Virus record (IMG/VR): IMGVR_UViG_3300020205_002287
Coordinates: 4,225-68,224 of that record
Strand: one strand, 5' to 3'
DNA length: 64,000 bases
From: a virus
A program made the translations under genes and the position numbers. Numbering within the stretch: the first letter of the stretch is position 1; each line of letters opens with the position of its first letter. The notes under the pieces were generated by a model. It searched no databases, was not told the DNA's origin, and saw only the letters and a list, made by a program, of their open reading frames with translations. Of this stretch, positions 26,627 to 46,540 are shown piece after piece.

Positions 26627-27898
26627 TTATAAGTTAATGGCTACCTGGACTTCGATTGTTTTAAGTTCGAAGGCAGGTGTTAAAACGAGGTCAACAATCG
26701 CTTTATTTTGGTTGGGAACATACGAAACTGTAAAATCGCTTCCCAATAAAGCACCCATGAGCTGCATTCCTCTTAGACCAGAAGTAATTGCTGTTTCCAT
26801 CGCATTGCGAACTTGAATGTTCGATGGCTCACCAATAAACTTCTGGCAAACTTGTCTAATGACAAGAGAAGCTTCGTCAACAATTCTCTTCGTTGACAAA
26901 CGAGTGTAGTCTGATGTTGTCTGAGCAAATGTCAAACCCTCACCAAAAACTGCTACTTTATTAAAGTTAAGAACAACAGTATTAATACCCTTTTCACTCA
27001 AAGCTTGCTGCTGAGTTCTTGTTGGAGCATAACGAAGAGCCTCAACATTGTAAAGTGGCTTATTAACCACTGAACTATATGAAGCCAGTCTGCTCATTGA
27101 GGCTGCTAAAAAGGCTGCACCATTTGAATAGCCGAATTGTGTCGTTCCCGATGAATAATTAACTGGCTTGATCTCAGTAGCAATGATAGTGACGTACGGT
27201 CCGACTGTCTTCCATGCATCTCCAGAATCTCTGTCCGGTAATCCAGACAAAGCAATTTTAGTTGCTATTTGACCTGGGGTCATTCTTTCATAGGTGGCAG
27301 TTCCGCCAAGAGTTGTACTAGCCAAGAAAGGCTTAACGCCCATAACGCCTATACAGGGGTTTGTGCTTTCTGAAATTTCTTTAACCTTAACTGCGACTTT
27401 ATAGGCCCAGTTTGTTGCATAGGCGGTATTGTTGTCAGCGTGAAAACCGTATTCTCTGTCATCACTGGGTGTAGCAGCATTTGCATTCCAGTCATTGGGG
27501 TCCGAACCACGGCCCCAAGGGATGATGATATCCGGAACTGCTGATTCTGCTGCGACAAAAGCTGGGTCAAAAACAGATCCACCAAAGGTCGAACTTGTTA
27601 CTGTGCAGAGTGTATGATCAAATACTGTATCACTTGGAAGTGGAACGATGAAAATTCTTTCAGCACCAGCGGTGACCAATTCGACGAATGCACGGTGTGC
27701 GTCTGATCCATTACCAAATGCGGTAATTGCATCAGCTTCGTTTGATACTCTAACTACGTCAAGGTCGGGAACTCCACCGGTATTGTCAGCAGTGCTGCGC
27801 TTTGCGATGGTTACAATTCTCGGACCAACAGGTGCGTCTTGTCTCGACACACTGTAAAAACGATCTCTTATTAAGGTTGTTACTCCAGGTATAGCCAT
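26627..27898 (-). CDS. Tail sheath protein
   Basis: N-terminal MAIPGV; C-terminal sheath-type region L..KGIN.V..GLT...SDYTRLSTKRIVD..FIGEP..L.L.PAFELKTI.V.V; GGAGG SD; directly upstream of the tube gene. Confidence 0.82.
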   Translation of the reverse strand: MAIPGVTTLIRDRFYSVSRQDAPVGPRIVTIAKRSTADNTGGVPDLDVVRVSNEADAITAFGNGSDAHRAFVELVTAGAERIFIVPLPSDTVFDHTLCTVTSSTFGGSVFDPAFVAAESAVPDIIIPWGRGSDPNDWNANAATPSDDREYGFHADNNTAYATNWAYKVAVKVKEISESTNPCIGVMGVKPFLASTTLGGTATYERMTPGQIATKIALSGLPDRDSGDAWKTVGPYVTIIATEIKPVNYSSGTTQFGYSNGAAFLAASMSRLASYSSVVNKPLYNVEALRYAPTRTQQQALSEKGINTVVLNFNKVAVFGEGLTFAQTTSDYTRLSTKRIVDEASLVIRQVCQKFIGEPSNIQVRNAMETAITSGLRGMQLMGALLGSDFTVSYVPNQNKAIVDLVLTPAFELKTIEVQVAINL

Positions 27899-27942
27899 AT
27901 TATTTTTAGACCTCCGATTGGGAATCTTTTAGAATCTTCATT

Positions 27943-27964
27943 TATAGTAACAGGCAAGTTATAA
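27943..27964 (-). promoter_or_regulatory. Putative phage-specific late promoter TTATAA-N8-TTACTATA upstream of the sheath gene
   Basis: Identical bipartite motif and spacing at 39635..39656; the TTACTAT core recurs in other intergenic gaps. Confidence 0.55.
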
Positions 27965-28010
27965 AAACAACTTCACAAACATTTATCTGAAGATAAATAT
28001 ATAGGTTTGG

Positions 28011-44045: not shown

Positions 44046-44055
44046 AAATTACACC

Positions 44056-44382
44056 TTAATGTTCAGTTGATTCATCAAACGGAGGGGGCGTACTTGTGTC
44101 AAATATATCACTACGCCCATTCATAACCTCCAATGAATAATCGGAATTATTATTTACAAATTCTTTTATTTCTTCAATTGAATGAATTTTAATATTAAAA
44201 AAATCAATTGATTCTTCTGTTAAATTTGAAAAATCAAAATCATCATTAACTTTAGAAATAGATAATTGACCAAAATAAGAATTAAGTAAAAAAAATGCTT
44301 TATCACTAGACGGGAAAAGGGTACCTAAAGTTTCGTATATATTTATATTATTCTTATATTGACAAAACGTTACATATTTCAT
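44056..44382 (-). CDS. Hypothetical protein, paralogue of the N-terminus of the downstream gene
   Basis: Start moved to ATG 44382 (MKYVTF), which aligns with MKYISF of the next gene. Confidence 0.7.
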   Translation of the reverse strand: MKYVTFCQYKNNINIYETLGTLFPSSDKAFFLLNSYFGQLSISKVNDDFDFSNLTEESIDFFNIKIHSIEEIKEFVNNNSDYSLEVMNGRSDIFDTSTPPPFDESTEH

Positions 44383-44389
44383 TTTTTTT

Positions 44390-46540
44390 TTAATCATCCA
44401 ATGTTTCATATGTTGCTTGTAGTTGCACTTCTGTTACTGTAGCATAGTGTAAATTATCGCCCGAATAGGGAGCTGAATCTATATTAAAGGCAATATTATA
44501 TGGTGGAGAGTTTAGCACATCTGGAGTTACTATATATGTCTGATATGCCGACAGATTATTTATATCACCATATTGTGTATAATTGATTCCATCAACAACA
44601 AGACTAGATATTCGAGGTGAACCAGTAGGGCCAACCCTAATGGAGAACTTATATAGTTTTGCATTCCTATGACCATCGGGTAATGACGGAGTAAAGTTTG
44701 CCGAAAATGATTCTGTCACCCTAGATGATACTTTACTGGTTGAAGCAACAAGATATTCCACGGAGCCTCCTGCTGCAGAGAGTGGAACATCATCTCCATA
44801 ATCATAGTCAAATGCCGTTAAATAATTATCTCCCTTTGTGTAATAATTACTAGTTCCACCAAAAATACTAACATCATTACCGGATGTTTTGTAAACGAAT
44901 AGGGTGCCACCAGAAGAACTAGTAACGTTAGCTGGCGTTGTTCCTCTTGGCGATAAAAACACCGTTGCTCCAGAAGAATACATCACAAAATATCGTTGGT
45001 TAAAGGCGCTATTACTGCTGCTTACAACAGTAACCTCATCTGCATATGCTAGGATGCATCTTGATGCTGAGTCTAATACGAGTCTAACGTATGGTGAGGA
45101 TGCGGTATTTCTTGCTATAGAAGAAATGCCATATCTTAGACTAGTTACTGTTGTAGTAACTGATGGCCTATTTTCATCAATCGCATGGTTGGAAGAAGTA
45201 TAGTATGTATTTAGATTATAATAAATAGCTCGCGAAAAATATGCTAATATTTTAAATTGCGTATAATATGTAGTTACATCGCGATATGGATTAGAGAACC
45301 ATATGGAACCTTGATTTCCATCTGAACCCATGGAAGAAGAATATCCTGAGGCATTAGAACTCGATGTTGTACTACTGGCTGATATCCAGCCAGTAGTTTT
45401 ACCAGTCCATGTCTTACCTCTTACTGCGCCGGTATAATCACTCCATGGTCCGTACTTATCAATGGTTTCGTAGTAAACTCTTGCCCTAAATCGATATTCT
45501 CTTGATTCAATGACTGTAAAATTTTGCCCATAATAACTTGTACTATTTCCAGTGACAACTGTAGTTCCAAGGAATGTAGTAATTCCTAGCCAAGATTGAG
45601 CGCCACGTGCCCTATATGCCGACTCCCATTCTATCTTTGCATCCCCATTATTGTACGCATTGATGTCAGTAAGGATAGCTAAATTAGTATCCGTAGTATA
45701 ATCGGCAATCTTGAAAGGAATTTGTGCTGTATGAAGTGGATAGGTACTTGTTGCGGATGAGTAAGAACTATAAGAACTATAGGAGTCTACTGGCGATCCA
45801 TAGTAAGTTCTTGCGCGACAGTAGTATGGAACATTTGCTGTCAAACCAGTGAACTGGACGGTCTTAGAAACAGTCGTATCATCCAGCGGAAGGATGCTGG
45901 TATTAAGTGATTGCACTACTGAATATCCGAACTGAGTTAAAACACTCAGTTCAAATCGAATATACGCTGCAACTCCGTTAGTTGAATAGTTGGAACTAGA
46001 GCTAGATGAAAATGATAGTTTTGTGGAACTGATTGTTCCTGTATTTGTTGGCGTTGTTGGAGTTGTTTTTGAATATGATGTGGTCGATGCATCTAGCGTT
46101 GATGTCACACTAAACTCTACAAAAGTTCCCTCTGCGTCATAGAACGCCGTGTAGCTAGAAAAATTATACGACGTTCCTGGACTTAAATCTGAAAAAGTAA
46201 ATGTTTGATTTATTGTGCTGGTTGTTGGATTAGCTGGGCTACTTTGAAAATTCCCCGAGTTACTTGTTCTATACGCATAAACTTTTTTGTTATCAGAACT
46301 TGATGCTATGACCCTCACGGTAACAGAAGTCGGAGTTGCGCTTACGAAGCTAAAGGTTGGAGGAGTGCTATCAGTTATTCTTGAATAAAAAGTTGTCCAA
46401 TCATTTGCTCCCGCACCAGTTTTAATTTGTCCTTTATTAACACTTGCCCAATCGTTAGCTCCAGATCCTGTTTTAATTTGTGGATTAGTTATTGTTTGCC
46501 AGTCGTTTGTTCCGGTGCCGGTTCTAATTTGTATAGTCAT
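44390..46540 (-). CDS. Ser/Thr/Tyr-rich FN3-repeat tail fibre / receptor-binding candidate (716 aa)
   Basis: Three N-terminal I(R/K)TG.G.NDW repeats and three FN3-like units (FSDLSPGTSYNF, FTGLTANVPYYCRAR, REYRFRARV..GPWS); AAGGA SD. Confidence 0.65.
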   Translation of the reverse strand: MTIQIRTGTGTNDWQTITNPQIKTGSGANDWASVNKGQIKTGAGANDWTTFYSRITDSTPPTFSFVSATPTSVTVRVIASSSDNKKVYAYRTSNSGNFQSSPANPTTSTINQTFTFSDLSPGTSYNFSSYTAFYDAEGTFVEFSVTSTLDASTTSYSKTTPTTPTNTGTISSTKLSFSSSSSSNYSTNGVAAYIRFELSVLTQFGYSVVQSLNTSILPLDDTTVSKTVQFTGLTANVPYYCRARTYYGSPVDSYSSYSSYSSATSTYPLHTAQIPFKIADYTTDTNLAILTDINAYNNGDAKIEWESAYRARGAQSWLGITTFLGTTVVTGNSTSYYGQNFTVIESREYRFRARVYYETIDKYGPWSDYTGAVRGKTWTGKTTGWISASSTTSSSNASGYSSSMGSDGNQGSIWFSNPYRDVTTYYTQFKILAYFSRAIYYNLNTYYTSSNHAIDENRPSVTTTVTSLRYGISSIARNTASSPYVRLVLDSASRCILAYADEVTVVSSSNSAFNQRYFVMYSSGATVFLSPRGTTPANVTSSSGGTLFVYKTSGNDVSIFGGTSNYYTKGDNYLTAFDYDYGDDVPLSAAGGSVEYLVASTSKVSSRVTESFSANFTPSLPDGHRNAKLYKFSIRVGPTGSPRISSLVVDGINYTQYGDINNLSAYQTYIVTPDVLNSPPYNIAFNIDSAPYSGDNLHYATVTEVQLQATYETLDD

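Follow-up and report, generated by a model that had tools for sequence, protein, structure and literature searches.

Glycosylation of phage particles by phage-encoded enzymes is so far known from a few actinobacteriophages, in which it alters antibody recognition. According to the relevant passages of PMC12363180 and PMC12619734 (citing Freeman 2023), the mycobacteriophages Che8, Corndog and Myrna attach glycans to the subunits of their capsids and tail tubes with glycosyltransferases of their own, and the glycans sit at the C-termini of those subunits; the second source is a 'moraphage' paper, about a lineage that is different, or unverified, relative to the phage studied here. We analyzed a stretch of 64,000 nucleotides (the window) that comprises bases 4225-68224 of the 68,224-base IMG/VR virus record IMGVR_UViG_3300020205_002287, with an estimated completeness of 32%. 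A preliminary description of this DNA had noticed a recurrent Ala-Thr-Pro tripeptide (A-T-P, hereafter ATP) in proteins of the virion, and had proposed that it could be a recognition site for the glycosyltransferase encoded at 39682..40461, next to the portal gene. We found that ATP is very probably a genuine motif under selection, with specificity both for virion proteins and for the clade to which the window belongs. The mechanism with the most support is O-glycosylation of its Thr, with the tripeptide as a sequon for the portal-adjacent enzyme; the chances for and against this appear to us about evenly balanced.

The proposed system would have in common with that of the mycobacteriophages that enzymes encoded by the phage modify proteins of its own particle inside the cytoplasm and thereby provide a surface glycan coat. 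The target proteins, the type of site and the enzyme family would nevertheless all differ. Unlike in the mycobacteriophages, the carriers in the window are decoration-like, sheath and fibre proteins, with capsid and tube proteins being free of ATP; ATP is also absent from the capsid and tail tube proteins of Che8, each of which ends in G-S. Our literature searches listed no paper on Ala-Thr-Pro or any other internal sequon for phage particles. PMC8402811 was considered as a precedent and set aside as irrelevant, since it concerns host lipo-oligosaccharide on a cystovirus.

Two groups of cellular enzymes offer further comparisons. The candidate enzyme resembles procollagen galactosyltransferase 1 (COLGALT1, family GT25) in being of GT-A type by profile match, and the acceptor of COLGALT1 is likewise a protein side chain. 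COLGALT1 is, however, a two-domain enzyme of the endoplasmic reticulum with about 600 residues that acts on collagen hydroxylysine, whereas the phage protein is a single domain of 259 residues, of which the match takes in roughly one third. Mucin-type O-GalNAc transferases favour a Pro next to the acceptor Thr. With these the proposed system would share the preference for Thr over Ser, the neighbouring Pro, the predicted placement of sites in loops or linkers and the occurrence of tandem arrays (ATPDT, in the near-complete relative G001). It would differ from them in showing no sequence relationship, no lectin domain, a location in the bacterial cytoplasm and a strict demand for Ala at position -1.

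All long open reading frames (ORFs) of the window are on the minus strand, and for the ATP scan 46 of them were translated (20,970 residues). The following occurrences were found.

27467-27475, minus strand: NAATPS, residues 142-144 of the tail sheath protein
28020-28028, minus strand: SATPNY, residue 306 of the gp138-like protein
28074-28082, minus strand: LATPNF, residue 288 of the gp138-like protein
29812-29820, minus strand: NAATPS, residues 242-244 of the sheath-like protein
35243-35251, minus strand: DATPVY, residue 229 of the 257-residue protein
35603-35611, minus strand: SATPST, residue 109 of the 257-residue protein
35807-35815, minus strand: AATPVQ, residue 41 of the 257-residue protein
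37647-37655, minus strand: GATPAY, residues 97-99 of the 258-residue protein
46331-46339, minus strand: SATPTS, residues 68-70 of the FN3 protein
53826-53834, minus strand: IGATPAA, in a 560-residue Ala/Gly/Arg-rich protein; probably chance and outside the proposed system

The first nine sites, in six virion proteins, were those listed in the preliminary description, and every coordinate proved correct on translation, as did the mention of one ATP in the 560-residue protein. The motif had been said to be absent from the 2212-, 1637- and 1203-residue proteins, the terminase, the portal and the major capsid protein, and each of these indeed had zero copies. A full scan of the 3610-residue open-ended ORF gave no ATP either, nor did translation of the three tail tube paralogues.

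The window alone did not make the excess of ATP significant. With the whole window taken together (44 ORFs, 20,589 residues), ATP was observed 10 times against 4.10 expected from the composition of each protein, ranking 55th among 3053 tripeptides seen at least three times, and all of 1000 shuffles gave some tripeptide at least as extreme. In the block 26627-46540 the count was 9 against 1.69 expected (P = 6.9e-5, rank 1 of 753 tripeptides), but some equally extreme tripeptide arose in 15.8% of 1000 within-protein shuffles, and the limits of that block had been set after the fact by the hits themselves.

Conservation among relatives gave a much clearer picture. A search of IMG/VR with the capsid protein yielded 560 related stretches, of which 80 loci were kept for comparison of orthologues. 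At the orthologous positions the tripeptide was kept in 83-100% of distinct sequences, with flanks often at 10-40%. We expressed this as an island score, being the identity of a tripeptide minus that of its eight flanking residues, for the 19 window proteins having at least eight distinct orthologues (5273 positions), where seven ATP sites were testable. Their within-protein percentiles were 0.990, 0.997, 0.996, 0.984, 0.992, 0.846 and 0.988, and among the tripeptides that occurred four times or more ATP had the highest mean percentile (0.97), with GLP coming next at 0.87. Conserved islands made up 178 of the 5273 positions overall as compared to six of the seven ATP sites, and the observed mean was reached in none of 200,000 random draws matched per protein. 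The remaining Thr-Pro and Ser-Pro sites had scattered percentiles with no such pattern. The five carrier families contained 1.0-2.7 ATP per orthologue against 0.06-0.21 expected, and other families had close to none. All three codons varied synonymously at every site among the relatives, to saturation, showing that selection acts on the amino acids and ruling out a DNA-level repeat, as had been suggested earlier. A shared homologous domain was also rejected as the source of the motif, since the two sheath paralogues align only weakly at the motif (BLASTP E 0.28) and the other carriers are unrelated. The earlier suggestion of selection across unrelated virion proteins was thereby borne out; among the ten sites, those in the FN3 protein and the 560-residue protein had little or no support from relatives.

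The ATP hypothesis, fixed beforehand, was next applied to three near-complete relatives, here called G001, G006 and G002. G001 is represented by a 210,765-base contig (G001:C1) that was binned with an actinobacterial metagenome-assembled genome (MAG) and encodes a capsid protein 58% identical to that of the window. Over the whole contig ATP was the top tripeptide (34 against 14.3 expected, P = 6.9e-6), with 3.3% of 300 shuffles being as extreme; within its virion block the count was 28 against 6.6 expected (P = 5e-10, none of 300 shuffles), and outside it 6 against 7.7. G006 (capsid 94% identical) had 27 against 5.69 in the block and 5 against 6.78 in the rest, and the corresponding values for G002 (capsid 87% identical) were 23 against 5.93 and 5 against 5.63. 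The enrichment was thus 3.9-4.7 times in the virion blocks and 0.74-1.0 times in the rest of these genomes, so that the comparison of structural with non-structural proteins called for in the preliminary description placed the excess entirely in the former. The block limits in the relatives were set by synteny after the sites had been seen, with ORFs called naively. Eight deep-branching loci together contained 41 ATP against 11.7 expected, and the motif persisted in genomes of 38-39% as well as 48% G+C.

The heaviest carriers in the near-complete genomes were proteins encoded just after the Baseplate_J gene, a region outside the window, with 15 ATP in G006 (in proteins of 525 and 961 residues), 8 in G002 and 8 in G001. 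This fibre pair is orthologous at 27-49% identity, and of the 15 sites in G006 four coincide with sites in G002 and four with sites in G001, the remainder being lineage-specific. Deep retention and turnover are hence seen together, and turnover of this kind, as read from these alignments, is typical of short linear motifs. A 321-residue protein of G001 carries a tandem array of ATPDT repeats, ATPDQATPITATPDTATPDTATPS, in a low-complexity stretch.

When the three virion blocks were pooled (83,606 residues), ATP was found 76 times against 18.0 expected, or 4.2 times. Among the other x-T-P tripeptides WTP reached 2.5 times (7 against 2.9) and STP 1.8 times, every other A-T-x tripeptide was at or below 1.4 times, and ASP was not among the seven most enriched A-x-P words in the pooled blocks, the seventh of which stood at 1.0 times. 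Ser was also seldom found in place of Thr at the sites. Specificity therefore lies in all three residues. The surrounding context, in a profile dominated by orthologous sites, showed D or N at -3 relative to the Thr, G, D, S or A at -2, S, T, V or N at +2 and Y at +3, and an aromatic residue was frequent two positions past the proline (ATPxY/F/W).

The genes of the carriers and of the candidate enzyme lie within a structural block, the order of which was read along the minus strand from Pfam and PHROGs matches and synteny to phages 0305phi8-36 and vB_BauM_KLEB27-3 (KLEB27-3), as follows, with the FN3-containing gene given last.

61049-62494, minus strand: ClpB-like ATPase
50841-52697, minus strand: terminase
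40730-42409, minus strand: portal
40465..40758, minus strand: 97-residue ORF with a Pro/Ala-rich C-terminal tail, PEPASAPVPVPAPAQEKP, between the portal and glycosyltransferase genes
39682..40461, minus strand: predicted glycosyltransferase of GT-A type, 259 residues, DxD motif D114-S-D116; the candidate reader of the ATP motif
37961-39610, minus strand: prohead protease/scaffold, 549 residues, after the glycosyltransferase gene
37167..37943, minus strand: 258-residue protein, one ATP site; its gene holds the place that gp124 has in 0305phi8-36
36070-37128, minus strand: major capsid protein, between the genes for the 258- and 257-residue proteins
35162..35935, minus strand: 257-residue protein with two Ig/FN3-like (immunoglobulin- or FN3-like) domains and three ATP sites, just downstream of the major capsid gene
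between the genes for the 257-residue and sheath-like proteins, minus strand: fibre-like proteins
28909..30543, minus strand: sheath-like protein, 544 residues, one ATP site (PHROG tail sheath, 5.7e-5)
28011..28943, minus strand: gp138-like virion structural protein, 310 residues, two ATP sites (PHROG virion structural protein, 7e-13)
26627..27898, minus strand: tail sheath protein, 423 residues, one ATP site (PHROG tail sheath families, 1.2e-28)
24118-25083, 25113-25847 and 25924-26601, minus strand: three tandem tail tube paralogues, after the sheath gene
end of the gene order, minus strand: giant proteins of 2212, 1637 and >3610 residues, the last open-ended
44390..46540, minus strand: FN3-containing protein, 716 residues, one ATP site (Pfam fn3 E 0.0088, below cut-off)

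In the tail sheath protein, ATP was aligned in 15 of 17 distinct orthologues, with the remaining two having it two columns off (percentile 0.990). G006 and G001 (43% identity for the latter) both have ATP in the corresponding loop, in the context QSPATPSDD, and the G002 orthologue has none. For the sheath-like protein 17 of 19 orthologues had the motif (percentile 0.996) and that of G001 lacked it. The protein encoded between these two genes had been named 'tail-completion' in the preliminary description, a name that did not hold, as PHROG and synteny evidence and matches to 0305phi8-36 gp138 and its counterpart in Moorella phage MTATph1 make it a gp138-like virion protein; ATP was present in 14 of 16 orthologues at each of sites 288 and 306, site 288 had a percentile of 0.997, and its counterpart in G001, at 31% identity, bears ATP at three C-terminal positions.

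Among the head-associated proteins, the 258-residue protein had ATP in all 42 distinct orthologues, with positions -3, -2 and +2 kept in only 20%, 20% and 32% (percentile 0.988), and the motif is kept in G001 at 54% identity. Its earlier name, 'cement' protein, likewise calls for revision: the position is that of gp124, a putative head decoration protein, but a sequence match to gp124 was not found. The 257-residue protein had ATP in 30, 36 and 30 of 36 orthologues at sites 41, 109 and 229, respectively (percentiles 0.984, 0.992 and 0.846), and Foldseek matched its predicted structure to Ig-like and FN3 domains or tandems thereof, and to SbsC at 1.3e-4. The FN3 protein had ATP in four of five distinct sequences, too few for the island test, so its site can be assigned to the system only weakly. 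The ATP of the 560-residue protein, with an expected count of 0.115 there, is probably chance; its counterpart in G001, 35% identical across the C-terminal part, has none, and the fetched loci contained no orthologue of it.

Exposed loops had been anticipated for the sites, and the structural models are compatible with this. In the model of the 257-residue protein (predicted local distance difference test score, pLDDT, 68.3) the N-terminal domain is confidently predicted and has site 41 in one of its loops; the segments around sites 109 and 229 have pLDDT values below 50. The sheath model (mean pLDDT 52.7) has its ATP in loop 131-152, also with pLDDT below 50, and was too poor for fold comparison. 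As both models are of low confidence, placement in exposed loops is tentative.

The 259-residue protein encoded at 39682..40461 is the candidate enzyme, predicted to be a GT-A glycosyltransferase that is GT25/COLGALT1-like. Residues D114, S115 and D116 were invariant in 30 homologues, with both Asp residues kept in more distant sets, and a profile of the homologues matched COLGALT1 in the PDB at an E value of 5.2e-9 over 91 residues around the DxD. Pfam Anp1 matched 27 of 30 members (best E 4.9e-7), with the window protein itself at 18.1 bits against a cut-off of 28.8 bits. Hundreds of metagenomic homologues were found, with PF13704 as their precomputed assignment, and PF13704 was not returned in our Pfam scan of the window enzyme; the corresponding Atlas clusters, almost all viral, are labelled 'Glycosyltransferase family 25, N-terminal domain'. 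A tblastn search with the window enzyme in 50,697 phage records gave no match at E <= 1e-3, so that homology to the enzymes of Che8, Corndog or Myrna was not found either.

All loci that span the portal-protease junction had the gene there (45 of 45), and its position was unchanged in relatives with capsid identities as low as 58%. In IMG/VR the enzyme family was found in this clade alone, and the genes around it always ran portal, small ORF, glycosyltransferase, protease, decoration-like protein and capsid. The small ORF, of 97 residues in the window, was found in 47 of 80 loci at identities from 25 or 29% up to 87%, being fast-evolving, always alongside the glycosyltransferase gene, and deeper relatives have a gene of about 90 residues at the same position. 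Relatives of the enzyme with about 235 residues were likewise confined to this clade in IMG/VR, and six further loci came from genomes: two were binned phage contigs of the clade, one was a short Solirubrobacteraceae contig, and three were in Saccharibacteria or Coxiellaceae contigs, the neighbouring genes there being without ATP. These searches thus gave no second, independent acquisition of the family by phages, and no close relative without the gene was found among 80 + 79 loci; it was lacking in distant outgroups only.

Those outgroups were 0305phi8-36, KLEB27-3, MTATph1 and six IMG/VR loci (L234-L239), in all of which the protease gene directly follows that of the portal. ATP counts in their virion genes were 4 against 4.56 expected for 0305phi8-36, 7 against 3.37 for KLEB27-3, 7 against 2.96 for MTATph1 and 1 against 4.76 for the six loci together, giving a total of 19 against 15.65, and none of the three cultured outgroups had an ATP site in its sheath or decoration-position genes. 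Co-occurrence of the motif with the gene, another expectation of the earlier work, was accordingly found, with no comparable excess in relatives lacking the gene. As the gain of the gene and the gain of the motif make up one evolutionary event, this co-occurrence nonetheless has a sample size of one.

The analysis shows the enrichment of ATP, its restriction to virion genes, the specificity of its residues, its conservation with turnover and its co-occurrence with the gene. From this we infer a modification at the motif, namely O-glycosylation of its Thr, with the portal-adjacent enzyme as the agent. The motif, in an extended form of roughly [D/N]-[G/D/S/A]-A-T-P-[S/T/V/N]-[Y/S], is maintained under selection in loops, probably exposed ones, of the outermost proteins of the virion, these being the 257- and 258-residue head-associated proteins, both sheath paralogues and the protein encoded between the sheath genes, together with the post-Baseplate_J fibres in complete relatives. 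The soluble 259-residue GT-A enzyme, presumably expressed late together with the structural genes, would recognise the tripeptide in the host cytoplasm and, with a nucleotide sugar as donor, attach a sugar to the hydroxyl group of the Thr, whereupon two to five further enzymes of the GT2 family may lengthen the sugar, with a sugar-coated particle as the outcome. For the full proposal, of a strict Ala-Thr-Pro sequon read by a small GT25-like enzyme that sugar-coats the decoration, sheath and fibre proteins of an abundant aquatic jumbo-phage clade, we put the chances slightly short of even.

Several points weigh against this proposal. The Thr modification is read from sequences alone, of an uncultured phage, and the solvent exposure of the ATP loops is suggested by two low-confidence models. 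The window-only excess of ATP fails correction for multiple tripeptides, and for the relatives the choice of block limits with the sites in view and the naive ORF calls must be kept in mind. The window enzyme is below every Pfam gathering score, and COLGALT1, its closest solved relative, acts on hydroxylysine and not on Thr. ATP is missing in the window from the major capsid and tube proteins, the ones that are modified in the mycobacteriophages, and two of the outgroups, KLEB27-3 and MTATph1, show a mild ATP excess of about two times. The link to the enzyme is circumstantial, being guilt by association that some other clade-specific factor would fit equally well. Finally, the extra GT2 genes of G001 adjoin those for ThyX and dCMP deaminase, and that cluster may for this reason serve DNA modification instead.

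Of the alternatives, the one that survives best is that ATP is a structural or assembly motif, such as a favoured element of loops or turns, or the place where a common clade-specific partner (a decoration protein or assembly chaperone, for instance) docks; this we find unlikely. The frequent aromatic residue after the motif could mean a small packing motif, and several sites border beta-sandwich domains. The carriers are, however, of unrelated folds and belong to separate assembly pathways for head, sheath and fibre, and the motif shifts within loops, turns over between lineages and forms tandem arrays in a low-complexity stretch, all of which is less easily reconciled with a fixed structural role, as is the lack of the motif in relatives having the same folds but no glycosyltransferase gene.

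A sequon for glycosylation or another modification could also have a different reader, either a GT2-family enzyme or one of the host, with the portal-adjacent enzyme then serving in glycan extension or in modification of DNA or of the host surface; this we consider quite unlikely. Genes of the GT2 family were found in all five near-complete clade genomes G002 to G006, with 2-5 copies each, and G001 has a cluster of GT2, PF13704, PIG-L and PglD-like (acetyltransferase) genes as well as an RmlD-like gene; the reliance of the portal-adjacent gene's association on a single event also leaves room for such a reader. On the other hand, that gene is the sole recognisable non-morphogenetic enzyme gene in the structural block of the window, its position is fixed throughout the clade, and the spread of the motif over genomes of such different G+C content would favour a phage-encoded reader if the hosts differ. 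WhiB genes, furthermore, were seen in G001 alone, with G002 to G006 not having been searched for them.

It is highly improbable that ATP serves for proline-directed Ser/Thr phosphorylation, or for some other modification that does not involve a sugar, AMPylation for example. Its T-P core does resemble proline-directed kinase sites, a host kinase is a possible source of such activity, and G001 encodes one Pkinase-domain and one Fic-domain protein. Neither domain was found, however, in any of the five near-complete genomes G002 to G006 (0/5 each), ASP was not enriched, Ser rarely replaced Thr, and the Ala at -1 was as specific as the Pro at +1; the G001 kinase, used as a query in IMG/VR, found nothing in a search that reaches close relatives only. 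Last, chance, a side effect of composition or shared ancestry is extremely improbable as the origin of the motif, in spite of the weak window-only statistics (matched by 15.8% of shuffles in the chosen block, and rank 55 window-wide) and the many sites in relatives that are inherited rather than independent, considering the random draws of the island test (0/200,000), the genome-wide first rank and the block shuffles (0/300) in G001, the lack of excess outside virion genes, the existence of lineage-specific sites and the specificity of all three residues.

Should the proposed reading be true, no internal sequon for O-glycosylation would have been defined in a bacteriophage virion before ATP, and particle glycosylation would be commoner and more varied than thought. 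The enzyme and its tag would form a compact pair transplantable to other proteins, with a minimal sequon and a 259-residue cytoplasmic enzyme for glyco-engineering in bacteria. Outward-facing virion proteins would become predictable from sequence alone, and the function of many orphan phage glycosyltransferases would become testable. Even if the modification is a different one, the motif is a robust and replicated signal of a recognition event on phage surfaces.

Some further features of the window and its relatives were observed. The major capsid protein of the window is 37-44% identical to those of the Bacillus jumbo myophages KLEB27-3, WH1, Edson and 0305phi8-36 and of Moorella phage MTATph1. 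The PHROG to which the tail tube paralogues match, phrog_9206, goes by the name 'major head protein', a label that seems inherited from the 0305phi8-36 gp140/gp141 records, annotated there as tail tube. A fibre-like protein of 710 residues (32269-34401), with weak matches to tail-fibre PHROGs and BppL_N, has 15% Ala, 17% Thr and 1.5% Pro and contains no ATP against 0.29 expected. The prohead protease/scaffold protein is longer in some deep relatives, with 867-876 residues (L088 6877-9507, L093 1976-4579 and L096 8850-11456).

In the relatives, G006:C1 showed an excess of GPQ, PQG and QGA (GPQ 81 against 7.9 expected), indicating a collagen-like repeat protein. The orthologue of the tube gene at 25924-26601 is found in G001:C1 (about 54,220-59,207, L243/L244) in pieces of 75, 79 and 106 residues. 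ORFs carrying LAGLIDADG homing-endonuclease domains lie between the pieces, a sign that introns or inteins may be present in this gene; a ribonucleotide reductase and an AAA ATPase encoded on the same contig each bear an intein. The contig also carries two WhiB-like and two Rv2632c-like genes (L249, L250), which point to an actinobacterial host for G001, and L228, a close relative, was binned with a Cyclobacteriaceae MAG.

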